Assembly (NCBI GenBank): GCA_965249965.1
Contig: OZ252262.1
Span: 3,044,682 to 3,076,681, forward strand
Direction of reading: 5' to 3'
Source of the DNA: Balneolaceae bacterium
Lineage (GTDB): Bacteria; Bacteroidota; Rhodothermia; Balneolales; Balneolaceae
DNA length: 32,000 nucleotides
Each line of letters opens with the position of its first letter. Position 1 is the stretch's first letter. The position numbers were made by a program, and so were the translations under genes. The notes under the pieces were generated by a model. That model was given only the letters and a program-made list of their open reading frames with translations. It did not search any database and was not told the DNA's origin. Shown piece by piece: positions 13,538 through 24,794 of the stretch.

Positions 13538-14029
13538 ATGAGGAGATTATTCATCCTATTTTTTGCTGTTTACCCCTCGATAATTTTTGCTCAAGGTAGT
13601 AATGTTGCTGCTGAAGTAAGTATTCAGGCAAATGTAATTCAAACTATTGAGTTAATTACTGTGAACTCTATGACGTTTGGAAATAATCAACCAGGCCAGC
13701 TGATTATTTATGTTAACCCTGTTAACGACTTAAATGCAGGCTTTATGATTGCCAGTGGTACACCGGAAGCTGAATTTCGACTTGATTATGAATTAGAGCG
13801 TCAGCTAAATAGAGTCGAAGGGGATGGTTTCTTAACTTTTAGGTACGAATTATCTGCTAATACACTAGAAGATCAGGCAAGTTCACAAATAATCGATTAT
13901 GAAAATCGAAATTTACGTTTTAATAATGAAGGTCTTTATTATATCTGGGTAGGCGGAGAAGTAAACTTGGAAAATGCACGACCAGGAAACTACGAAGGCG
14001 ATTTCACAATTGAGATTGACTATATCTAA
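13538..14029 (+). CDS. DUF4402-like secreted fibre subunit (163 aa)
   Basis: Signal peptide MRRLFILFFAVYPSIIFAQ. It has an N-proximal MTFGN motif and the C-terminal motif PGNYEGDFTIEIDYI, both shared with the next three ORFs. Confidence 0.5.
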   Translation: MRRLFILFFAVYPSIIFAQGSNVAAEVSIQANVIQTIELITVNSMTFGNNQPGQLIIYVNPVNDLNAGFMIASGTPEAEFRLDYELERQLNRVEGDGFLTFRYELSANTLEDQASSQIIDYENRNLRFNNEGLYYIWVGGEVNLENARPGNYEGDFTIEIDYI

Positions 14030-14032
14030 TTA

Positions 14033-14614
14033 ATGAAAGGTTTAACATTCATAGTAGTCTGTTTATTAATGTGCTCTACTTTAAAAGCGCAAGAAATAGA
14101 CTTTGGTAGCTTTAGTAGTAGTTACTCAGTTACTTTATCAGAGTTCAGTCCGGGTGCTGAAATCGATTTTGGCACTGTATTCGAAGATGTTTCGCCTTTT
14201 TCTGTAGATATTAGCAGCGCTGTTATTCTCACAATTGAAGGTGTGAGATATCTTGACATAATTGTTGATCTAAATGGACCTGACAATATTACTTTAAATG
14301 GTGATCCATGTGGTGCCAGCTCTTGCCAGGTAGATTTTGATTTAAAAGCTTCCTACGCCAACAGAGGAATATTAAATACTAGTCATGCAGTTAATTTCAG
14401 TGTTAATGGCTCAAATGACGCAAGTGCACAGTTCCCAATAAAATACAGAGGAAATGCGCCTCCTGGACCACCTCCTACTCCCGTATATGAAGGATTCAAT
14501 CCCTCTCTTTTTAATGAAACTGCTTATTTATTTCTGTATGGTGATATTACTGTGGGAAATGTTACCGCAGGATCATATTCTGGAACAATAAATGTAACTA
14601 TTAATTATGATTAG
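14033..14614 (+). CDS. DUF4402-like secreted subunit (193 aa), candidate specialised/tip subunit
   Basis: Signal peptide MKGLTFIVVCLLMCSTLKAQ, an IDFGT motif and C-terminal AGSYSGTINVTINYD. It additionally carries the Cys pair GDPCGASSCQ and the Pro-rich stretch APPGPPPTP. Confidence 0.5.
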   Translation: MKGLTFIVVCLLMCSTLKAQEIDFGSFSSSYSVTLSEFSPGAEIDFGTVFEDVSPFSVDISSAVILTIEGVRYLDIIVDLNGPDNITLNGDPCGASSCQVDFDLKASYANRGILNTSHAVNFSVNGSNDASAQFPIKYRGNAPPGPPPTPVYEGFNPSLFNETAYLFLYGDITVGNVTAGSYSGTINVTINYD

Positions 14615-15128
14615 GCTATTTCTCATCATATTAATACATGTGGTTTCACAAATACATTTGCATTCACAGTTTATCAATTTACAAATAAGAGTTGAACCAG
14701 AATTATCAGCAACAGTTGAACAAGATCTAAATTTTGGGCAATTAGTAATTAATTCTGGAATAACAGAAATAAGACTTGGCGACGTGAATATGGGTATTTT
14801 TAATATTCGTGCCTATTACACGCAAAATATTTATGTGAGCCTCGATTTTCCTACTGCATTGATTCATGATAATCCTGCCATTAAAGATGTTATCCCAATG
14901 GATTTAGACGTTGCATATAACAATACAGGTAGTAGAAGTGTGTTTAATTCAACTGAATTAGAGGGTAATGAAGGTTTCCTACCTGTGACAGAAAACGTAT
15001 TAGTTACCCAACGAAACCAAGAGATATGGCAAGAATTACTACTATTTGTATACGGCTCAATTGATGTAGGAAATGTTAATGAAGGTCTGTATTCAGGTGA
15101 AATCCTACTATTTGTAGACTATGATTAA
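14607..15128 (+). CDS. DUF4402-like secreted subunit (173 aa)
   Basis: Overlaps the previous ORF by 8 nt. It has a hydrophobic N-terminus, an LNFGQ motif and C-terminal EGLYSGEILLFVDYD. Confidence 0.45.
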   Translation: MIRLFLIILIHVVSQIHLHSQFINLQIRVEPELSATVEQDLNFGQLVINSGITEIRLGDVNMGIFNIRAYYTQNIYVSLDFPTALIHDNPAIKDVIPMDLDVAYNNTGSRSVFNSTELEGNEGFLPVTENVLVTQRNQEIWQELLLFVYGSIDVGNVNEGLYSGEILLFVDYD

Positions 15129-15134
15129 TTACTT

Positions 15135-15168
15135 AAAAACTCTTAGACAATTTTAATTAAGAGTTTTT
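15135..15168 (+). terminator. AT-rich perfect 11-bp inverted repeat; weak intrinsic-terminator/attenuator candidate
   Basis: aaaaactctta (15135-15145) pairs perfectly with taagagttttt (15158-15168) around a 12-nt loop, 7 nt after the stop at 15128. Only two G:C pairs are present. Confidence 0.35.
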
Positions 15169-15238
15169 AACTAGGATTGAAAAAGAGATATAAATAATTT
15201 TATACCAGAATTTAAAAGCCAAACTAAACTTTAGAATC

Positions 15239-15790
15239 ATGAAATCACTAAAAAATATCCTTTCTGCTTTTGCATTAGTTGCATTATTAACTACTGCCAC
15301 TTTCGCTCAGGAAAATACTGACGTTAATATTGGAGCAGTTGTTCTTGCAGATATTACTTTAACAAAAAATGCTGATGTAAGCTTCGGTAACATCCAGGAT
15401 ACTGGTAGCCCTGTACTTGACCCTCAAGGAACTAACACTGCAGCAGTTGGTGCAGGTGCTACTTTTGGTAAATTGACAATTGGCGCTGCTAACACAACTC
15501 AGCTTCTAATTGATTGGGATCAAACAACTGTTACGTTAAGTGATGGAACTAACAGCATGACTTTTACTCCAGATATTTCTGCTAACAGTACAGATGATAT
15601 TGCTACTTCTTCTGATGTGACTAAGAACACTGCAAATGCTGCTACTGAAACTTCTGCAGGTGGTGCACTTTTTGTTTATATCGGTGGAGATCTTGGAACA
15701 CTTTCAAGTCAAGCAGCTGGTACTTACACTTCTGATAGTGGAACTGCTGGCGCATCTGGTGATCTTAACATCACAGTTAATTATCAATAA
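15239..15790 (+). CDS. DUF4402-family protein (183 aa), candidate major fibre subunit
   Basis: Signal peptide MKSLKNILSAFALVALLTTATFAQ, followed by Thr/Ala/Gly/Ser-rich low-complexity sequence. The VSFGN motif and C-terminal AAGTYTSD...LNITVNYQ closely match DUF4402 proteins as I remember them (ending ...G.Y......tVnYn). The gene has its own AT-rich 110-nt upstream region and a strong downstream terminator. Confidence 0.65.
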   Translation: MKSLKNILSAFALVALLTTATFAQENTDVNIGAVVLADITLTKNADVSFGNIQDTGSPVLDPQGTNTAAVGAGATFGKLTIGAANTTQLLIDWDQTTVTLSDGTNSMTFTPDISANSTDDIATSSDVTKNTANAATETSAGGALFVYIGGDLGTLSSQAAGTYTSDSGTAGASGDLNITVNYQ

Positions 15791-15811
15791 GAGATAATTA
15801 AAGAATATAAA

Positions 15812-15840
15812 AGTCTCACTCTTCGTGAGACTTTTTTTTT
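15812..15840 (+). terminator. Rho-independent terminator after the candidate major subunit gene
   Basis: agtctcac (15812-15819) pairs perfectly with gtgagact (15825-15832) around the 5-nt loop tcttc, followed by a T run through 15840. Confidence 0.75.
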
Positions 15841-15914
15841 GCCCTAAATCGATTCTTCGCAAATTGTTATAATATTGCTTAGAACAATTTTGAATTATTT
15901 TAACTAAATTATTC

Positions 15915-16775
15915 TTGATGGCAAATTATATCTACGCGATGAAGTCTACTATAACACTTTCAGTTATTCTTTTAATAATATCATCTATCACAATCGCTAA
16001 TGCTCAAGTAACCATTGCACCTACTAATTTATTTATAGAGGAGAATGCAAGATTTGGTACTTACATGGTGATAAATAATTCAAATGATACTCAAGAAATC
16101 TCGATTGATTTCACCTTTGCATACAGCCAAAGTGATGAGCAGGGTTACAGAACAATTGTTCAGAATGAAGATGAGATTAAGGAAGCACACTCGATTGCTG
16201 ACTATGTACGTGCATTTCCAAGGAATTTTACTTTAGCGCCTGGGCAAAGACAAGTAATTCGATTACGTCTTACCCCCCCTAATGACCTCGAAGATGGAAC
16301 ATATTGGGCTAGAATAAAAACTGCCTCAACACCAGAAACCCCACCAATCGAGTTGCAGTCTAATGATGCTGTTGCTGCTCGGGTAGGAATAAGAGTTGAA
16401 CAGGTAACAGGATTATTCTATAAAAAAGGATCGGTTAGTACAGGGATTGAAATTGAGGAAATTAGAACAGAATATGATTCTGAAAGCGAGAATCTAATCG
16501 TGCTGATTGATCACCAAAGAACAGGGAATAGCCCATTTCTTGGCTCTATAATCACGTCAATCATTGACAGTAATGGCCAAGAGGTTCGTAGAGGATTCTT
16601 ATCAACTTCACTATATTTTGATGGAATTTTCAGGCAAGAATTTGAAATTGGAGATCTCCCTAATGGAGAGTATTTAATTCGAGCAACCTTCGAAAGTAAT
16701 AGAAGCGATATCCCAGAATCTGACTTAGTACAGATGCAAAGTGTTACAGAAACCACAACTTTTACGAAGCGTTGA
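15915..16775 (+). CDS. PapD-like periplasmic pilus chaperone (286 aa; the true start may be ATG 15939)
   Basis: Signal peptide MKSTITLSVILLIISSITIANAQ. VTIAPTNLFIEENARFGTYMVINNSNDTQEISIDF and FPRNFTLAPGQRQVIRLRL...LEDGTYWARIKTASTP follow the chaperone N-domain pattern (v.i.P.r......v.N, then PP.f.l.pg..q.vRi...D.E..f.l.v..iP). The size fits two Ig-like domains. Confidence 0.6.
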   Translation: MMANYIYAMKSTITLSVILLIISSITIANAQVTIAPTNLFIEENARFGTYMVINNSNDTQEISIDFTFAYSQSDEQGYRTIVQNEDEIKEAHSIADYVRAFPRNFTLAPGQRQVIRLRLTPPNDLEDGTYWARIKTASTPETPPIELQSNDAVAARVGIRVEQVTGLFYKKGSVSTGIEIEEIRTEYDSESENLIVLIDHQRTGNSPFLGSIITSIIDSNGQEVRRGFLSTSLYFDGIFRQEFEIGDLPNGEYLIRATFESNRSDIPESDLVQMQSVTETTTFTKR

Positions 16776-19757
16776 GAATAATATTAAAACCATTATTCTT
16801 TTTTTTTTTCGCTACTAGTTTCCAGTAGTACGGCTTTTGCTCAAAGCGAAGACGACTTCGAAGTTTATCTTCAATTTACTCATAGAGGTGTAATAAACAA
16901 TTATGTTATTGCTTATTACGATGGAAATGAGTTTTTCTTACCTGTTAAAGAGTTATTTGATCTGCTTCAGATCGAGGCCAATTTAAATGGCGTTGTAATA
17001 GATGGAAGGTTTGCACTCGAACAGACTGATTATTTCATTGACCTAAATAGACAGTCGATAACATATGGAGACAAATCTTATCCATTAACCAGTGACGATT
17101 ACATACTCACTGAATTAGATACATACATCCCTCCTAGATATTTTAGTGAGGTTTTTGGTTTAAATTTTTCGGTAGATTTTAATAACCTCACACTCAGGCT
17201 GGAAACAGAAGTTGAAATACCTATTATTCAACGCTATTTAAGACAGTCAAAACGAAAGCTTGCAGATACCAACAGAGGCGAAGTCTCCTATTACCCTTTA
17301 GAGTTTGGACTAGAACGAAGCTTTTTCGATGGAGGGTTTATGGATTATAGCTTAGCAGCTAACTTAAATAATCAACTAAATACTTTCAGTTATAGTAGCT
17401 CGCTTGGGTTACAACTGCTAGGTGGGGATTTACAAGGTGGGTTATTCGGTAACGTAAATAATGAAACCACCATATTTGAAACCAATAACTTAAGATGGAG
17501 AACCTTATTACGCGATAATAATTGGCTTAAAAGTATAACAATTGGTCAAACTAATACCGATGGTGTATTTATGAACAGCTATACTGGAATAAGATTATCC
17601 AATGAACCAATTGAGCCTAGAAGGTTATTTGATGAATTTGAATTACAAGGAAATACAATTCCCCAATCTGAAATTGAATTATATCTCGACAATGCACTAA
17701 TCGATTTTAGTCAAGCCGATGAATTTGGAAATTATCGGTTTTTGGTACCTCAATACTATGGTACAACTCAATTAGATTTAAGAATTTATGGACCAACCGG
17801 ACAAATAATTCAACAACGATCAAGACAGCAGATTCCATTTAATTTTGTACCAAAAGGAGAATTTAATTATAGATTTAATGCAGGTGTATTAGAGAATTCA
17901 TCTATTGGTGAGACGGATAGAGATAATACAATACAAGGATCTATTTCATATGGGGTTAATCGTTGGTTAAGTTCGAAAGTAGGAATCGAATATTATTCCT
18001 CAATAATTGGTGAGAATAAACCTTTTTATACAGCAACATTATCAAGCCGAATCGCATCTAACTATATATTCTCTGTTGAAGGAGTAACAGAAGGGTACTT
18101 ACGATCGACGTTAAATGCGGTTTATCCAAATTCTGCCAGTATCAATCTGGATGTAACTAATTACTCTTCAAAGGAAACAATATTTAATACATCGAATAAT
18201 GATTATCAGGTAATAGGAAGCATATTCCTTCCAATAACTATAAAAAATCAATTATTCAGCGTAAGGGTTTCAAATTTTTCGAGAGTAAGACAAGGGTTAA
18301 CTTTAAATACTATTAGAACCGATCTGAGCGCGAAGGTTAATCGTATTAATATGAGATTGGGGTATTCAGATAGATTAGTCGATTCTTTTGATATTTTAAA
18401 AGGTTCAGGTTCAGGGATTTTAGAATCTGCACTAACATACAACTTCACAAGAAACCCAAATATTCCAAAATTTATCAGAGGCACTTTTTTACGTAGTCAA
18501 CTTAGATTTGTCCCATCAACAAACTCATTTCAGCAAGGTGAGATACTGGTATCCAGAAGTTTGTTCAATAAAGGTAGAATACAAGCTTCTCTTGGTAGAA
18601 ACTTTCAAGGAAAGTTTAATACGTTTAGAATCAATTTTGTAATTGATTTTGGGGTTATTCGATCGAACACAACTACCACTGTTATCAGAGGTAATGTGAA
18701 TTCTAACCAAACAGTACGCGGTTCAGTTGGTTACGACTCGAACTTCAATAATTTTATTTGGACGAGTAGAAACCAAGTTGGTCGGTCTGGTACAGCTGTT
18801 CGGTTTTTTGTTGACAACAATACAAATGGCACATTCGATTCTGATGCAGATGAACTCCTCGATGATATCAATCTAAGACTTGGAAGAACCGGCGCATCAA
18901 CGGTATATAAAGATGGAATATTATATTACAGCCAACTAAACTCATATTTCCGCTACAATGTTGAATTGAATCAAACATCCATAAAAAACCCAATGCTGGT
19001 AGCAGATCGTGACAGATTCTCAATTGTTACAGACCCGAATTCGTTCAAGTTACTAGATATTCCTTTCAACATGAGTGGAGTTATGGAAGGAGCCGTAGAA
19101 AGAATTTATGACGATGGATTTACACAAGGTATTGGTGGACTAAAAGTTCTTGTTACATATTTAGATGACAATAATGTAAAAGAACTCCGTACTTTTTCAG
19201 ATGGAAGTTTTTATGATTACCCACTTAAACCGGGGAATTATCGTCTTGAAATTGATCCATCACAATTAACCATATTGCAAGCGAGATCTGAACCTGAGTT
19301 CATAAATTTCGAAGTTAAAACACTACGTGACGGTGATTTTGTTGAAGGATTGAACTTCAAACTTCTACCAAAAATTGACCAGGAACAAACACCTGAAGAC
19401 AGTTTAACTGCGCTAACCATTGCTCAAGTAACCGACGAAATTAAGAGTGAACCAGAAATATTAGAATATTCTCAGGAAATATTTGTAACTATTGATGATG
19501 CACTCAGGTACTTAATTCAGGCTCAAAACGCCTTTTACAGCAAGAATATCGAGCTTGCGTTCCGTTTAGTTCAAGAATCATTAGAACTTTTTGAAACTGC
19601 ACAAGGGCACGCTTTAAAGGGAAGTTTTTACTATTTTGAGGGCAACATCGACCAGGCGCAACGACATTGGGAACAGGCACTCAGATTTAACCCCGATCTC
19701 TACATCCCAGATATGGAGACTCTAGAGGACAAGGTTTCGACGAGTGCATCAGATTAG
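16772..19757 (+). CDS. Usher-like outer-membrane fibre-assembly protein (~995 aa if read through) with a C-terminal CarboxypepD_reg-like plus TPR-like extension; reading frame interrupted at the T11 tract
   Basis: The frame of ORF 17340-19757 is open back to 16788 and encodes ...FFSLLVSSSTAFAQSEDDFEV (a signal-peptide end), but it has no ATG/GTG/TTG before 17340. TTG 16772 overlaps the chaperone stop (TTGA) and encodes MRIILKPLFFFFF in the adjacent frame, which stops at 16826. Usher-like motifs include the N-domain FFLPVKELFDLLQIE...IPPRYFSEVFGLNFSVDFNNLTLRLE and the plug-like IELYLDNALIDFSQADEFGNYRFLVPQYYGTTQLDLRIYGPTGQIIQQ. The C-terminal part has LKVLVTY...RTFSDGSFYDYPLKPGNYRLEI followed by TPR-like helices. 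Confidence 0.6.
16799..16809 (+). repeat. T11 homopolymer inside the usher signal-peptide coding region
   Basis: Counted directly as t at 16799-16809, flanked by c at 16798 and c at 16810. Confidence 0.95.
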
Positions 19758-21606
19758 GATGTATAATATAGGTAACATATTCAACCACCGACTTCTCAAT
19801 TTGGCTTCTAAAAAAAGCCACCGACTCCCTACCCCCTCTATTTTTTTATTAGTTTTTGTTAATATTCTAATTGTTAACCCTGTTTTTGCTCAAACTGCTA
19901 TTGATCCTGGTAATACGCAGTCGTTAGAATTAAGAGTTGCAAATCTCGAACAGCAGTACGATTCCCAAATAATCCAGATACTTGCTAATTACTTCGATCG
20001 AAAGAAATTTTTTATTGATGTAAATTTAGAAGCAGAATTAATTGATGAAACAGTTGGAACTTCCCAAAACCAAGTGGTTTCTTCATCACAACCACGGCAG
20101 AATTTATTTATGCCGGGTCTGCCTTTCTTACCTGAAGAAAACGTTCGCCAACAACCATCTTTAACACTAGAGCCTGATGTAATAGTCAATCAAAATACTA
20201 TCAAAACACTCCGTTTGGTTAGTATGAACGTTAACATATATGCTGATACTTCACTTACGGCTGAACAACTCGAACTAATGCGGTTTATAACAGGTATAGC
20301 TGTTAAAGTTAATCCCAATCGAGGAGATCAGATTGTCATTTCTCAAATAGCAATTCCTGATTATACCGAACGACCAGAGCCGATAACTGCAACAACAATT
20401 TCACCTCAACCAACTACAAGTCCGGATTTCAATTCAATCTATACCTACGTTCCTGCATTCGCTTTAATGCTTTTATTTGGTCTCACCTTATTGTTCAACC
20501 GCCTGATGAACAAGCCACAACCACAAATACCCATTAGGGAATTTAGAGAAGCATTTAAGCAAGATTATGCTACTAACAGAGAATTAGCCCGTACAGAGTT
20601 AGAAATCGAAGATCCTGAGCCAATGGAATCACCCGAAATAGTTGTAACGAAAGATGAAATTGTGGAAGCTTTCTTCACTAAACCTGATGAAGTATCCACC
20701 ATTTTCAGATATTGGTTAAGTGACGAAGAAATCGGTGCTGAAAAAGCAGCTGAAGTAATTGTTGCTACCGATAAACATTTACTTCGTACGATTAAACGAG
20801 AATTACACCCAGAGGATTACGAAACGCTTACCGACGCAGTAATCGATTTACCAGAATTAAGCCCAGAAAAGCGTAAAGAAATCCTAACCCAGTTTGGAAA
20901 AATGCTTCAACAGGGTGCGAAGAATACGATATCTGAAGGAAAAAGAAATAAGTTTTCACTCTTCAAATTTCTAGATCATATTTCTGACCAACATATTTTA
21001 ACGCTTCTGGAAACAGAAGACAGTCTATCGGGTGCATTTATACTGCAATATCTACCTGAAGAACATGCAGCAGAATTCATTGAGAAGTTAGACAAAGAAA
21101 TTGCTGCTAAAATTATGTTGCATATGGCAACATTAAACAATCTTACGAACGATCAACAACAAAGAATTTCTTCTGAATTATTTGATAAGGCCATGGATTT
21201 GGTTGAAGCAGAACGTAGCGAGCAGTATGGAGCAGAGCACCTGTACCCTATTCTAGAACGCTTGCCAGTTCACGAACAGAAACGTTATATCGATGAATTA
21301 AAAGCGACCGGATCTATTGTTGGAGCCATATTAGAGAAACAATTTATTACCATCGAGAAATTGCCTGAATTAAGCGATGAAATTATTAAAAGAGCAGTTC
21401 GTACTTTAAATACTGAAACCTTGTTGGATGCTATCGTTGGCCTGGACGCTCATATTGTAGATAAAATTTTATCTGCTCGCCCTAAACGTGAACAACGTCT
21501 GCTTAGAATGGAACTTGACGAATTACAAGGCGCAAGTAATTTGCAAACCGAATATGCAAAAGCCATTCTTATGAATTCAATTAGAAAGAATGCGAATGAC
21601 GGCTAA
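19744..21606 (+). CDS. Membrane protein reading as a FliF-like ring-building domain fused to a complete FliG-like (N/M/C) rotor protein (620 aa from GTG 19744; 615 aa from ATG 19759)
   Basis: It has an N-terminal hydrophobic segment (IFLLVFVNILIVNPVFAQ), a periplasmic segment, a TM helix (IYTYVPAFALMLLFGLTLLF), and then a cytoplasmic FliG-like sequence. See the two domain features below. The start is 1 nt after, or 14 nt overlapping, the usher stop. Confidence 0.65.
   Translation: MHQIRMYNIGNIFNHRLLNLASKKSHRLPTPSIFLLVFVNILIVNPVFAQTAIDPGNTQSLELRVANLEQQYDSQIIQILANYFDRKKFFIDVNLEAELIDETVGTSQNQVVSSSQPRQNLFMPGLPFLPEENVRQQPSLTLEPDVIVNQNTIKTLRLVSMNVNIYADTSLTAEQLELMRFITGIAVKVNPNRGDQIVISQIAIPDYTERPEPITATTISPQPTTSPDFNSIYTYVPAFALMLLFGLTLLFNRLMNKPQPQIPIREFREAFKQDYATNRELARTELEIEDPEPMESPEIVVTKDEIVEAFFTKPDEVSTIFRYWLSDEEIGAEKAAEVIVATDKHLLRTIKRELHPEDYETLTDAVIDLPELSPEKRKEILTQFGKMLQQGAKNTISEGKRNKFSLFKFLDHISDQHILTLLETEDSLSGAFILQYLPEEHAAEFIEKLDKEIAAKIMLHMATLNNLTNDQQQRISSELFDKAMDLVEAERSEQYGAEHLYPILERLPVHEQKRYIDELKATGSIVGAILEKQFITIEKLPELSDEIIKRAVRTLNTETLLDAIVGLDAHIVDKILSARPKREQRLLRMELDELQGASNLQTEYAKAILMNSIRKNANDG
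19945..20361 (+). other. FliF/SctJ-type ring-building-motif (RBM3-like) periplasmic domain
   Basis: LEQQYDSQIIQILANYFDRKKFFIDVNLEAEL resembles FliF lE..i...i..iL.pivG.g.v.v.V.a.ld. IKTLRLVSMNVNIYADTSLTAEQLELMRFITGIAVKVNPNRGDQIVISQIAIP resembles FliF i.RLSVAVvV....lt.eq...i..lv..avGf...RGD.v.V....F. A TM helix follows, as in FliF. Confidence 0.55.
20731..21591 (+). other. FliG-like N, middle and C-terminal domains
   Basis: N domain: IGAEKAAEVIVATDKHLLRTIKRELHPEDYETL...EILTQF (FliG_N has the EKAA motif). Middle domain: LLETEDSLSGAFILQYLPEEHAAEFIEKLDKEIAAKIMLHMATL (compare FliG l..EhPQtiAlil.yL.pe.AA.vl..Lp.e....v..riA.l). C domain: LSDEIIKRAVRTLNTETLLDAIVGLDAHIVDKILSARPKREQRLLRMELDELQG...EYAKAILMNSIRK (compare FliG l.d.di..ll.evd...L..ALkga..el.ekil.nmS.Raae.l.edle..gpv...dve.Aq..il). 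Confidence 0.65.
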
Positions 21607-21623
21607 CTTCTAATTTTATCCAC

Positions 21624-22154
21624 TTGATGAACGTACGGCTTTATACATTAGCACTCATTTTTACATTTTTATTGCTTCATTGTTCATCATCCAGCGAAGT
21701 TGTAGAGCCTGAAGGAGAAACGATTACAGAGTTAAGCGAAGTAGAATTAAAAGCCCAGGCGCAAGCTGATAGCGTAGCTGAAGCCGAAGCCAAGGAAGAA
21801 GAACTTCGAAGCGCACTTATCGAGCTTTATAAAGATGAAATTTATTCCCGATATCAGGCGCAGGCAAATACACTAACTAACTATTACATCTTAGCCCAGC
21901 AACATTTTTATTCTGGCGATTTTGAAAATGCCTTATTCTTAATCAATAGAGCTGCATTGATTAAAGAAAATGCTGATGTACTTGCTTTACGAGGCAGTAT
22001 ATATTTGGGCCTTGGTTATATCAATGAATTTGTAAATCAGTGGCGGAGAGCGCTTGAAATGGACCCCGAAGTTCCTCTACCTTCTTCTGCATATATCATT
22101 CAGCAATTGCAAAATAACGGACTAATCGACGAAAACTTAAAAAAGGCTTTTTAA
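21624..22154 (+). CDS. Lipoprotein with C-terminal TPR-like module (176 aa)
   Basis: It has a lipobox-type signal (TFLLLHC followed by SSSS), an acidic/Ala-rich helical segment (AQAQADSVAEAEAKEEE) and a TPR-like C-terminus that is homologous to the usher C-terminal extension. Confidence 0.6.
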   Translation: MMNVRLYTLALIFTFLLLHCSSSSEVVEPEGETITELSEVELKAQAQADSVAEAEAKEEELRSALIELYKDEIYSRYQAQANTLTNYYILAQQHFYSGDFENALFLINRAALIKENADVLALRGSIYLGLGYINEFVNQWRRALEMDPEVPLPSSAYIIQQLQNNGLIDENLKKAF

Positions 22155-22159
22155 CCTTC

Positions 22160-22957
22160 ATGCGGACATCCATTCTTAACATTTTATGCTTTCTGATTTC
22201 TCTAGTTGTATTGGTGTGGGGTGCTTTGCTTGTTACTGGATTTACACAATACGACTTAATTCCCAGTAGATTTTCGTTTTTAAATCTTCCAAGCCTGGCA
22301 ATCGTTTTTGGCGGGATCACAGCGAGCGTTTTTATTAGTTATCCATTTAACAGTGTCTTAAAAGCGTTATTGGAAAGCACCAAACTATTTTCTTATAGCA
22401 CGATTACTCCCGATTTATTAGAACAGGATGTGCAAAGAATTATGGATTGGCAAAAAATGATAAAACAAGACCGATTCTCTGCTATTTCTCAGCTAAGTGA
22501 AGATTACTCCAATCAATTTGAAGGGTATTTGTTTTCCGTGTTAGACACCAACTATTCAACCGAAGATTTACGTGAACTTGGAGAAATTAATATCGAAGAA
22601 AATTATACCCGCCAGCAGCTTGTAAATCAGATAATATCGAGCATGGGAAAAACATCACCTGTATTTGGCATGCTTGGCACGCTCTTTGGGTTGATTGTAA
22701 TTCTATCTGGTTTTAGTGAGGTAGAATCTCTACTTACAGGTTTGGGTGCTGCACTTATGACCACTCTTTATGGGATTTTGATTGGTAATTTCGTCTTTAC
22801 GCCCATGGCCAAGAAAATGAATAATGTTGCTTCGATGCGCTATTTTCGTGAAAAATTGATTTTAGAAGGGATCATACTAATCGAAGAGAATAAGTCTGCC
22901 TTACAGGTATACGACCGATTACAGGCGCATATGCGAAGAAATAAGAACATGATTTAA
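22160..22957 (+). CDS. MotA/TolQ/ExbB-family proton-channel protein, MotA-like (265 aa)
   Basis: Two N-terminal TM helices are followed by a ~100-aa charged cytoplasmic loop, and then the conserved C-terminal TM pair SPVFGMLGTLFGLIVIL...LGAALMTTLYGILIGNFVFTPMAKKM. This is the MotA_ExbB family signature. Confidence 0.8.
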   Translation: MRTSILNILCFLISLVVLVWGALLVTGFTQYDLIPSRFSFLNLPSLAIVFGGITASVFISYPFNSVLKALLESTKLFSYSTITPDLLEQDVQRIMDWQKMIKQDRFSAISQLSEDYSNQFEGYLFSVLDTNYSTEDLRELGEINIEENYTRQQLVNQIISSMGKTSPVFGMLGTLFGLIVILSGFSEVESLLTGLGAALMTTLYGILIGNFVFTPMAKKMNNVASMRYFREKLILEGIILIEENKSALQVYDRLQAHMRRNKNMI

Positions 22958-22967
22958 TTCATGTATC

Positions 22968-24794
22968 GTGAAGAAGAAGAAAAACATAATTCTAACACGT
23001 TCGCTCTTTCCATTACAAGAATTTGAGGAAGATGATGAAAATAGCTGGCAAGTTAGCTATTTAGACATCATTACCATTGTACTGGGTTTTCTGATCATAT
23101 TACTTTCTGTTTCACAGATAACTAAATCTGAGTTTACCTCGCTTTCTTCGATTTTTGGTAAACTAGCAGATGAATCTGAGTTCATAACAACACCAATTGG
23201 CAATATTCAAGATGAACTGGTTGAAATGCTTGAACCGGAAATTACAGCCGGAAATCTTGAAATTATTCGTGATTTAAATGATTTACGTATTCGTTTCAAA
23301 AGTGATGATTTATATAATTCCGGAGAAGCAAAATTACAACCAAGTGCAGAATACCTTTTAGATAGAGTTCTAATTGCAATGCAAATGACAAGCTACAACG
23401 ATTTTAATATCGATGTGGAAGGTCATACCGATAATACTCCAATTGCTTCAATTCAATATCCTTCGAATTGGGAATTGTCCACAGCAAGAGCTGCAAATGT
23501 TGTTAAGTACTTCAATGACTTAGGAATTCCTGCAAAGCGTCTAAAAGCGTCTGGTTATGCAGACTCGCGTCCAGTAATTGAATATGATTCGCTAGGCTTT
23601 CCTTTTGCAGCTAACAAAGAAAAGAACCGAAGAGTTGTACTTCGGTTATACTATTCTACTGATAATTTGATAGAAGAACGCCGAGAAGATGCTATCGTTG
23701 AGGATGTATTAACTTCAGAATCATTGGAAGGCTCAATTCCTGAAATCACAACTATAGATCCGCCAGAAAGTGATGAAAATGTACTTGTTCTAGCTGATCA
23801 ACCGGCCATGGTAACTTTACTTGAAAGAAACCGAATTGAAGAAGCAAGGCGAGAAGAACAAAATCGCCAACAACAGGAAACCAATGAACTAATTGCAGAA
23901 GTTGAACAAAAAAATATCCCAAATAACCAAGAACTTATACCTGAGCCTGAACCTGTAAATGAAATACCAGAACCTGTAGTATCTACCCCACCTGCTTCAA
24001 CTCCAGCGATAGCTTCTATGAATTTGCCTTCAACATTGAGAGTTGATGCACGATGTCAGTTTTCAGTACAAATTGGAGAGTTTGAAGCATTACAAACTGC
24101 GTTTCAGCAGGCTGCCCGAGTTGAATCAGCCTTATCTTCCTCTGTGATTTTAACTTACAATAACAATGAATATTCTGTACGGACAGAACCAATTTCTTCT
24201 TTTAGAGATGCCCGGACTGAACAAAATAGAGTTGCTGAGCAATTAAATAATACTGACGTTACACTCTTACATCAGTGCTACAACAATACATTCAATCGTC
24301 CCAAGCCGGTTAGGTACTTAATACAATTTGGAGCTTATCAGAGCAGATCGAATGCCATTGATTATACCATTGAGTTAATGAATCAGTTTGGAGTTCAGGC
24401 GTATATGAATCGTGTTTCTGACACTTATAATGTATTAACCGGACCATATACCTCAAGAAGCGAAGTTCTGTCTCGCCTTCAAGCTTTTAGGTCGCAAAAT
24501 ATTTCTTCAAACTTGTTTATTCGTCATCAACCGGAAACTGTTTTTAATTACAAATATGCTTATCAAATTGAGATAGACACATTTTCGGACAGGATTTCAG
24601 CTGAAAATCTCGCAAATCAGGTACAAACCACTAGCAATATCACCACACGAGTTGAAGAATTAAATGCAGGAATTTTTTCTGTATTAACGGGACAATCAAA
24701 CAGTTTTGATGAGACGCAACGAGCTTTCAACAGGCTTAGAACATCCGGTATAGCAGAAAATCCGGTAATATTTATCCTTGAATCTTCATTATAA
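22968..24794 (+). CDS. MotB-like stator/peptidoglycan-anchoring protein: MotB TM helix with conserved Asp, OmpA-like domain, Pro/Glu-rich linker, three SPOR repeats (608 aa, GTG start)
   Basis: WQVSYLDIITIVLGFLIILL matches MotB W.v.YaDfmT...; the Asp codon gac is at 23064-23066. OmpA-like motifs are IDVEGHTDNTPI...NWELSTARAANVVKYF...RLKASGYADSRPV...NRRVVL. A linker (EPEPVNEIPEPVVSTPPASTP) precedes the SPOR repeats. Confidence 0.8.
   Translation: MKKKKNIILTRSLFPLQEFEEDDENSWQVSYLDIITIVLGFLIILLSVSQITKSEFTSLSSIFGKLADESEFITTPIGNIQDELVEMLEPEITAGNLEIIRDLNDLRIRFKSDDLYNSGEAKLQPSAEYLLDRVLIAMQMTSYNDFNIDVEGHTDNTPIASIQYPSNWELSTARAANVVKYFNDLGIPAKRLKASGYADSRPVIEYDSLGFPFAANKEKNRRVVLRLYYSTDNLIEERREDAIVEDVLTSESLEGSIPEITTIDPPESDENVLVLADQPAMVTLLERNRIEEARREEQNRQQQETNELIAEVEQKNIPNNQELIPEPEPVNEIPEPVVSTPPASTPAIASMNLPSTLRVDARCQFSVQIGEFEALQTAFQQAARVESALSSSVILTYNNNEYSVRTEPISSFRDARTEQNRVAEQLNNTDVTLLHQCYNNTFNRPKPVRYLIQFGAYQSRSNAIDYTIELMNQFGVQAYMNRVSDTYNVLTGPYTSRSEVLSRLQAFRSQNISSNLFIRHQPETVFNYKYAYQIEIDTFSDRISAENLANQVQTTSNITTRVEELNAGIFSVLTGQSNSFDETQRAFNRLRTSGIAENPVIFILESSL
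24054..24755 (+). other. Three SPOR-like (septal/denuded-glycan-binding type) repeats at the MotB-like C-terminus
   Basis: Repeat 1 is CQFSVQIGEFEALQTAFQQAARVE...YSVRTEPISSFRDAR. Repeat 2 is YLIQFGAYQSRSNAIDYTIELMNQFGVQAYMNRVSDTYNVLTGPYTSRSEVLSRLQAF. Repeat 3 is YQIEIDTFSDRISAENLANQV...FSVLTGQSNSFDETQRAFNRL. All follow the SPOR pattern (y.vQvGaf....A......l...g......g.yrV..Gpf.s...A). Confidence 0.6.

Follow-up and report, generated by a model that had tools for sequence, protein, structure and literature searches.

A TPR module shared by an usher-fold protein and a motor-cassette lipoprotein in Balneolaceae: a candidate link between a pilus pore and a FliF/G-MotAB motor

Introduction

Classical ushers such as FimD and PapC function without an inner-membrane energy source and represent the textbook case of energy-free fibre assembly at the outer membrane. 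Here we describe a locus from a Balneolaceae genome (assembly GCA_965249965.1, contig OZ252262.1, positions 3,044,682 to 3,076,681, 32,000 nucleotides in total, hereafter the window) in which a gene coding for an usher-like protein is followed by genes coding for a FliF/G-like fusion protein, a small lipoprotein and a MotAB-type stator, and in which the C-terminal tail of the usher and the lipoprotein share a tetratricopeptide repeat (TPR) module. The resemblance was noticed from sequence alone in two 67-residue stretches encoded at 19509-19709 (usher) and 21882-22082 (lipoprotein), and the original prediction was that the module may physically connect the outer-membrane usher with the inner-membrane rotor/stator complex.

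Coupling of this kind is known from other envelope machines. The GldLM motor and the GldKN ring of type IX secretion and gliding are an ion-driven inner-membrane motor coupled across the periplasm to an outer-membrane apparatus for secretion or adhesins. Periplasmic TPR or Sel1 proteins are reported to serve as stator scaffolds in flagellar motors, namely PflA/PflB in Campylobacter and Helicobacter, MotX in the Vibrio T-ring and FlcA in the Borrelia collar. In the Tol-Pal system, CpoB (YbgF), which consists of a long N-terminal helix or coiled coil and a C-terminal TPR domain, is encoded with the MotAB-family TolQR proteins that link both membranes.

Results

Homology of the usher tail and the lipoprotein

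The two stretches align without gaps with 24 of 67 identical and 36 of 67 positive positions (BLASTP E-value 1e-12 in a single comparison), and both the translations and the identity count of the original prediction proved to be exact. When the 18,546 six-frame open reading frames (ORFs) of the genome, which is complete and comprises 3.48 Mb with 39% G+C, were searched, each stretch retrieved the other with E-values of 1e-6 to 8e-6. The usher tail and the window lipoprotein are not reciprocal best hits: a third copy, found in a 208-aa lipoprotein at genome position 412,320-412,946, scores better for both, with 33 and 37 bits. Class-specific hidden Markov models (HMMs) were built from other genomes only, with this genome excluded. 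The usher-tail HMM gave 52 bits for the window lipoprotein and 70 bits for the third copy, and the lipoprotein HMM gave 45 bits for the usher tail. Since no generic TPR protein of this genome scores above 22 bits, these cross-class scores (45-70 bits altogether, 45-52 bits between the two window proteins) place the similarity far above that of random TPR pairs, and the two stretches are homologous modules, as had been proposed. The homology reaches upstream of the 67-residue cores into a long helix, hence the wider envelopes given in Table 1. The modules had been placed at the extreme C-termini, which needs a small correction, as the cores end 15 (usher) and 23 (lipoprotein) residues before the C-termini.

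In an alignment of 20 copies from nine genomes the module, with a length of roughly 90 residues, is built from a long helix that leads into two TPRs, followed by a [DN]PxxxIP loop and a cap helix, and has the signature AQ..FY.g.f..Al followed by E[TN]A[DQ]..ALKGsiy..G....A...W..A..[DN]P...IP. AlphaFold2 (AF2) models made with family alignments show the same helix pattern in both proteins. In the usher tail, helices are predicted at residues 889-917, 921-934, 938-950, 954-967 and 976-986 with a predicted local distance difference test score (pLDDT) of ~80-84, the repeats being formed by the three middle helices together with the end of the long one, and an NPDLYIP loop precedes the cap helix. 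In the lipoprotein (pLDDT 87 for the model and 92-98 for the module), a signal peptide and an acidic disordered stretch precede a 59-residue helix (39-97), which is followed by the two TPRs and, after a DPEVPLP loop, the cap helix; the remaining helices are at 100-113, 117-130, 133-146 and 156-164. Cys20 (21681-21683), where the signal peptide ends, hardly varies among homologues, which supports the assignment of this 176-aa protein as a lipoprotein.

The best Foldseek match of the lipoprotein is the designed two-repeat TPR protein 1na3 (target-normalised TM-score 0.77, 84 columns), and a PDB profile search with the module found CTPR3 at an E-value of 0.003. With Pfam TPR_2 the usher tail reaches 22.4 bits and the lipoprotein 24.8 bits against a gathering score of 27, and a distant family member reaches 39.5 bits with the Pfam TPR model. 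Judging by the models and these matches, the module is a true but minimal TPR domain. A library-wide search with the module profile was dominated by long multi-TPR proteins and gave 18 full-length matches consisting of a single or near-single stretch; the 15 of them that were checked are short lipoprotein-like proteins or usher C-termini and fragments, with no third architecture. In a metagenomic usher fragment, P0326 (662 aa), the module occurs twice in tandem (residues 450-523 and 566-650).

Module groups and the stand-alone cassette

The third copy lies within a paralogous, usher-less cassette at genome position ~410,800-415,850 on the minus strand (locus L001 8811-13843), where the gene order is FliF/G fusion (614 aa), a 359-aa secreted protein with a C-terminus typical of outer-membrane barrels, TPR lipoprotein, MotA and a short MotB. 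A gene for a 976-aa TonB-dependent-receptor-like protein follows on the same strand. Hereafter, cassette A denotes the usher-linked motor cassette and cassette B the stand-alone FliF/G-MotAB cassette. In a tree of the 20 module copies, usher tails (90/85), cassette A lipoproteins (93/89) and cassette B lipoproteins (79/83) are each found on one side of a branch; the duplication is therefore old, and the groups represent orthologous series and not recent copies.

The stand-alone cassette is also present in other Balneolales genomes. In a distant family of the same phylum (loci L076-L079) there are stand-alone cassettes with the order TPR protein, MotA, MotB, FliF/G, and some of the TPR proteins of this family have an ordinary signal peptide and no lipobox. 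A small module-bearing protein is encoded in every FliF/G locus with downstream sequence, which includes 29 usher-linked loci, four stand-alone loci from four Balneolales genomes and four loci of the distant family. Wherever the non-flagellar FliF/G-MotAB cassette occurs, the TPR lipoprotein is among its core parts. As the genome also possesses a canonical flagellar cluster (~45,700-94,400) with five to six flagellin genes, its own FliF and a 353-aa FliG, both cassettes are extra, non-flagellar motors.

Distribution of the TPR tail and the motor genes

The sample of 151 genomes from the order contained the usher in 108 genomes and FliF/G-like genes in 79, and 69 usher loci with downstream DNA (at least ~8.5 kb wherever the contig continued) were compared. 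In 29 of the 30 loci with a TPR-tailed usher, the FliF/G-like gene is located directly downstream of the usher gene and is followed by the TPR lipoprotein gene wherever the contig continues. Usher orthologues in syntenic loci retain the tail, and the original prediction thus withstands one of the outcomes named there as refuting it. None of the 39 other ushers has any cassette gene in its downstream sequence, and all 39 lack the TPR tail. The usher-body tree requires at least 9 changes of the tail state on well-supported branches; of 9 independent contrasts, 8-9 show FliF/G adjacency changing in the same direction as the tail (sign test p ~0.004).

Usher homologues without the TPR tail have other C-termini. 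In the set of homologous proteins, those of ~1,000 aa carry the TPR tail, those of 1,120-1,550 aa carry SPOR domains and no TPR, and a few of ~840-900 aa, some of which may be truncated gene calls, carry neither. Likewise, the surveyed motor-less ushers either have SPOR or OmpA-like tails (1,085-1,567 aa) or are tail-less (~870-940 aa), and a Pfam scan of six long non-TPR tails assigned four as SPOR and two as OmpA-like. The loci of Gracilimonas and Fodinibius contain an adhesin gene, pilin-like genes, DUF4402 subunits, a chaperone and a SPOR-tailed usher with no motor genes; the Fodinibius locus adjoins the pdh genes and thus occupies the same chromosomal position as the window.

Where the motor is present, OmpA-like and SPOR domains are found on MotB, and where it is absent, they are often found on the usher. 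This distribution of peptidoglycan-binding domains is a complementary, Rosetta-stone-like pattern. The SPOR tail of MotB aligns collinearly down to the final residues with those of motor-less ushers. Among the usher tails tested, those of the Gracilimonas type and of family f3 have it as their best match in this genome, and a Fodinibius tail was too divergent for a decision. An origin of the usher-SPOR genes by repeated deletion from the TPR tail to the OmpA domain of MotB was considered and rejected because the SPOR tails of ushers and those of MotB form two groups and are not interleaved in the manner of the usher bodies. On sequence grounds, the SPOR-type and the TPR/motor-type 3′ ends look like old alternative cassettes. 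In two usher-linked loci of family f6 (L033, L035), MotB is short (228-235 aa), has no SPOR tail and resembles MotB of the stand-alone cassette, so the SPOR extension of MotB appears to be specific to the Balneolaceae loci examined.

Inheritance of the tail with the motor genes

In a comparison of the window with two same-genus loci, the usher bodies are 46-48% identical, which is no higher than between genera, whereas identity reaches 87% for the usher tail, 77-78% for FliF/G, 78-80% for the lipoprotein, 90% for MotA and 81-85% for the N-terminal part of MotB. With the usher-body alignment, monophyly of the four same-genus loci is rejected (log-likelihood difference 153; p-AU, from the approximately unbiased test, 5e-51), while the tail tree and the motor tree recover these loci as a clade at 96 and 100, respectively, together with matching sub-groups elsewhere.

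Between the body and the tail, in the disordered linker, identity to same-genus orthologues rises abruptly from 20-50% to 90-100% (usher residues ~881-891). The fibre subunits, the chaperone and the usher body (13538-19430) are 42-65% identical within the genus when compared with loci L006-L008, and the flanking pilin-like genes located further upstream and the motor genes are 77-90% identical. The pilus core thus forms a hypervariable, recombining island between conserved flanks, and the conserved motor side begins with the usher tail.

Reduced loci and the candidate partner

Four genomes possess reduced loci with no MotAB gene downstream (G141, G048, G040 and the second locus of G044). All of them retain the usher tail, a FliF-like periplasmic protein and a lipoprotein-like gene, with a weak module match of 24 bits in G044, and the FliF-like ORFs in G141, G048 and G044 are 275-354 aa long compared to 620 aa in the complete fusion. 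In G141 (97% complete; locus L038 547-4832), the TPR-tailed usher is followed by a 275-aa FliF-like protein, the TPR lipoprotein and then pdhC, as in the window. The 275-aa protein has the FliF-like periplasmic domain and transmembrane (TM) segments and ends soon after the second of these in an acidic stretch, and no MotA match was found in the whole G141 genome at E <= 1e-10. The set that persists with the tail thus consists of the FliF-like periplasmic protein and the lipoprotein, not of the stator. MotB, which had been suggested as a partner of the TPR tails, is disfavoured by these loci and is an unlikely one.

A candidate ligand is located in the periplasmic domain of the FliF-like protein. 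The core PG[LV]PxxP was found in 33 of 33 distinct Balneolales FliF/G-like proteins in which a search for PG[LVIM]P located a site, usually with L or M as the preceding residue; around the loop, conservation in the alignment is poor. The core is absent from one fragmentary Balneolales ORF and from the four distant-family proteins, which have LPGV(K/S)GF. The PGLPxxP loop is a plausible candidate for a TPR ligand. There are weak hints that the periplasmic domain shares the ring-building identity of FliF: its profile gave no PDB matches other than two weak ones to FliF (E-values 0.17 and 0.78) and one relative has a sub-threshold match to PF08345 (E-value 0.0055), while a search of the genome with PF01514 found only the true FliF.

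Usher fold and gene layout

No usher family was matched by sequence in Pfam, NCBIfam or PDB-profile searches. Despite that, the top 19 PDB matches of the usher model in Foldseek are all FimD or PapC (E-values 1.9e-29 to 6e-10, 720-920 aligned columns, best target-normalised TM-score 0.61), and one homologue is annotated as FimD/PapC in its source. These alignments cover the usher body, residues 1-861, which is predicted to comprise an N-terminal domain, a plugged β-barrel and two C-terminal β-sandwich domains, and do not include the tail. By its predicted fold the protein is a true usher. The TPR tail is no general feature of ushers, as was originally stated, given that FimD and PapC align to the body and that the motor-less relatives have SPOR, OmpA-like or no tails.

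The usher reading frame is open from 16788 to 19754 and begins well before the listed ATG, with the first in-frame start codon at 17340. A TTG at 16772 opens a good signal peptide but, owing to a T11 tract (16799-16809), lies in another frame; the tract minus one T would join this start to the usher frame.

The operon is tight, with the start of the FliF/G gene overlapping the usher stop by 14 nt (Table 1). The FliF/G fusion consists of a signal or TM segment, a periplasmic domain (~50-235), a TM segment and the FliG middle and C domains (~405-620). It matches NCBIfam TIGR00207 below the cut-off, as the MotA-like protein does the MotA/PomA/MotP models. Upstream of the usher, three of the four subunit-like proteins have DUF4402 matches just below the Pfam cut-off and the fourth has none, and the 286-aa chaperone-like protein shows weak matches of the Ig/fn3 type alone. 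The order of the subunit and chaperone-like genes is conserved in all related loci.

Table 1 Features of the window discussed in the text, with the support for each assignment.
Feature	Coordinates	Strand	Support
Four DUF4402-type fibre subunit genes and chaperone-like gene	13538..16775	+	Weak Pfam DUF4402 matches, synteny
Usher gene	16772..19757	+	AF2 mean pLDDT 83; Foldseek FimD/PapC
Usher disordered linker, residues ~862-882	19371..19433	+	pLDDT <50 at 865-882; recombination boundary
Usher C-terminal TPR tail	19428..19754	+	Family HMM envelope 19479-19751; originally noted core 19509-19709
FliF/G-like fusion (620 aa)	19744..21606	+	Pfam FliG_N, FliG_M, FliG_C
MPGLPFLP loop, FliF/G fusion residues 123-130	20110..20133	+	Candidate TPR ligand
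TPR lipoprotein (176 aa)	21624..22154	+	Module envelope 21852-22124; originally noted core 21882-22082
MotA-like stator A subunit	22160..22957	+	Pfam MotA_ExbB 4.5e-16
MotB-like stator B subunit	22968..24794	+	Pfam MotB_plug, OmpA, SPOR; triple-SPOR tail

Discussion

The idea that the tail is a connector is well supported by the comparative evidence, in that gains and losses of the tail coincide with those of the motor and the phylogeny of the tail follows that of the motor and not that of the usher body, although linkage alone could explain part of this agreement. We consider it fairly probable that the module is a specialised docking element of the FliF/G-MotAB cassette and that the usher tail is a paralogue which docks the usher onto the same assembly. 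The original carrier of the module would be the small lipoprotein whose gene lies between those for rotor and stator, and the usher would have gained a copy, an old paralogue, which now forms its C-terminal tail behind a flexible linker. The usher tail and the lipoprotein would then be two outer-membrane-tethered TPR modules hanging into the periplasm, where they would dock the outer-membrane side to the assembly of the FliF-like protein. This outer-membrane side would be made up of the small barrel protein and the lipoprotein in the stand-alone cassette and of the usher and the lipoprotein in the window. The likeliest contacts would be the periplasmic domain of the FliF-like protein, with its PGLPxxP loop as a candidate ligand, and/or the lipoprotein itself, and such docking would join the pilus pore to the rotor/stator.

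Several observations weigh against this docking model. The DNA coding for the tail abuts the motor genes, so recombination in blocks carries both whatever the tail does, and the contrasts given above may overstate the coupling. The one exception in the survey, G078 (92% complete), has a TPR-tailed usher followed by an adhesin gene, and no copy of FliF/G or of the lipoprotein was detected in the whole genome. The 359-aa barrel protein of the stand-alone cassette has no TPR tail, so not every outer-membrane partner requires one. The residues conserved across all three classes of the module mostly belong to the ordinary TPR framework, and no charge complementarity exists between the usher-tail and lipoprotein modules, as all classes are acidic with a mean net charge of -2 to -3.

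The first two of these points are also the basis of the alternative that survives best, namely that the tail is a periplasmic TPR domain with a job unrelated to the motor, for example on chaperone-subunit complexes or on another envelope protein, and travels with the motor by adjacency only. The tail is indeed encoded by the last 110 codons before the FliF/G gene, whose start it overlaps, and the 3′ ends behave as alternative cassettes, so recombination would move tail and motor as a block; G078 in turn has the tail with no detectable motor. Pure linkage is nevertheless unlikely. The motor-less homologues, 39 of 39, lack the tail, which means that the usher's own function needs none; the tail is homologous to a protein that belongs to the core of the motor cassette even where there is no usher; and the breakpoint falls exactly at the domain linker, with the tail conserved as strongly as the motor proteins.

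It might also be suggested that the TPR modules bind the periplasmic region of MotB in order to position or activate the stator, in which case the tail would tie the stator to the outer membrane. The location of the lipoprotein gene directly before motA-motB, the presence of the peptidoglycan-binding domains on MotB together with a TPR-tailed usher and on the usher when the motor is absent, and the precedents of PflA/PflB, MotX and FlcA in flagellar motors all fit such a scaffold. However, the four reduced loci retain the tail, the lipoprotein and the FliF-like protein with no adjacent MotAB, one of them (G141) in a genome with no MotA match at the threshold given above, and no relationship to PflA/PflB, MotX or FlcA was found among the Pfam, NCBIfam or PDB matches, which leaves this explanation quite unlikely.

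A complex of usher and lipoprotein similar to BamD-BamA or LptE-LptD, in which the modules bind only each other or self-associate through their long helices with no inner-membrane contact, is in our opinion the least probable alternative: the long helix preceding the TPRs in both proteins could pair, both proteins are probably tethered to the outer membrane (by the usher barrel and by the nearly invariant lipobox cysteine) and the metagenomic fragment P0326 carries the module in tandem, but the classes show no charge or other obvious complementarity, the conservation of the lipoprotein with FliF/G in usher-less cassettes would be left unexplained and the FliF-like protein is kept in every reduced locus.

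The docking model can be taken one step further, to mechanical coupling, with MotAB-driven rotation or a power stroke of the FliF/G ring being passed through the TPR adapters to the usher, so that the pilus would be rotated, retracted or extruded at the expense of a proton or sodium gradient. We regard this as possible but doubtful. If true, the machine would be unlike any known class of pili, with a conserved motor and adapter recombined with fast-diversifying usher bodies and subunits.

Each of the described systems resembles this locus in part. The likeness to FimD and PapC lies in the fold of usher residues 1-861 and in the position of the usher gene after the fibre-subunit and chaperone-like genes; the differences are the lack of detectable sequence similarity, the linker and TPR tail (SPOR or OmpA-like in relatives) and the fact that the usher is co-operonic and co-inherited with a FliF/G-MotAB motor. 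PflA/PflB, MotX and FlcA are likewise small periplasmic repeat proteins tying a MotAB-type stator and rotor to other structures of the envelope, and the lipoprotein gene of the window is located between the rotor and stator genes, but the module described here has only two TPRs, is lipid-anchored, has been duplicated onto the usher and is kept in loci without MotAB. CpoB, as it is generally described, shares the long helix followed by a TPR domain and the gene position beside a MotAB-family motor, and differs in being soluble, having more repeats and acting on TolA and peptidoglycan synthases.

The PilF/PilW pilotins and BamD are outer-membrane TPR lipoproteins that bind a β-barrel or secretin partner, but with 5-6 TPRs they are far longer, and they have no tie to FliG/MotAB. 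The comparison with pilotins made in the original prediction does not extend to membership in that family: only the paralogous lipoprotein matched the PilW model TIGR02521, with 18 bits against a cut-off of 154, and there are only two TPRs. GldLM/GldKN shares the principle of coupling a motor to the outer membrane and comes from the same broad bacterial group; it uses GldL and GldM with no FliG, the coupling is performed by the motor's own periplasmic arm and not by TPR adapters, and the partner is a translocon and not an usher.

In a full-text literature search, no account was found of a chaperone-usher system combined with FliG/MotAB, nor one of DUF4402, and a recent survey of MotAB relatives and stator evolution makes no mention of ushers or TPR proteins. 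What is new here is the three-group module family, the all-but-perfect association of the tail with the motor, with SPOR or OmpA-like tails as the alternatives, the recombination boundary and the reduced variants.

The usher tail is the best candidate for the physical link between the pilus pore and the motor. If it is indeed a motor adapter, some ushers would be wired to an ion-driven inner-membrane motor by means of a piece of roughly 90 residues. An observation on gene neighbourhood thereby becomes a testable interface made up of three elements, namely the usher tail, the TPR lipoprotein and the periplasmic domain of the FliF-like protein, which carries the PGLPxxP loop. The finding bears on the reuse of flagellar motor parts outside flagella and on the recombination of a conserved engine with fast-evolving surface structures.

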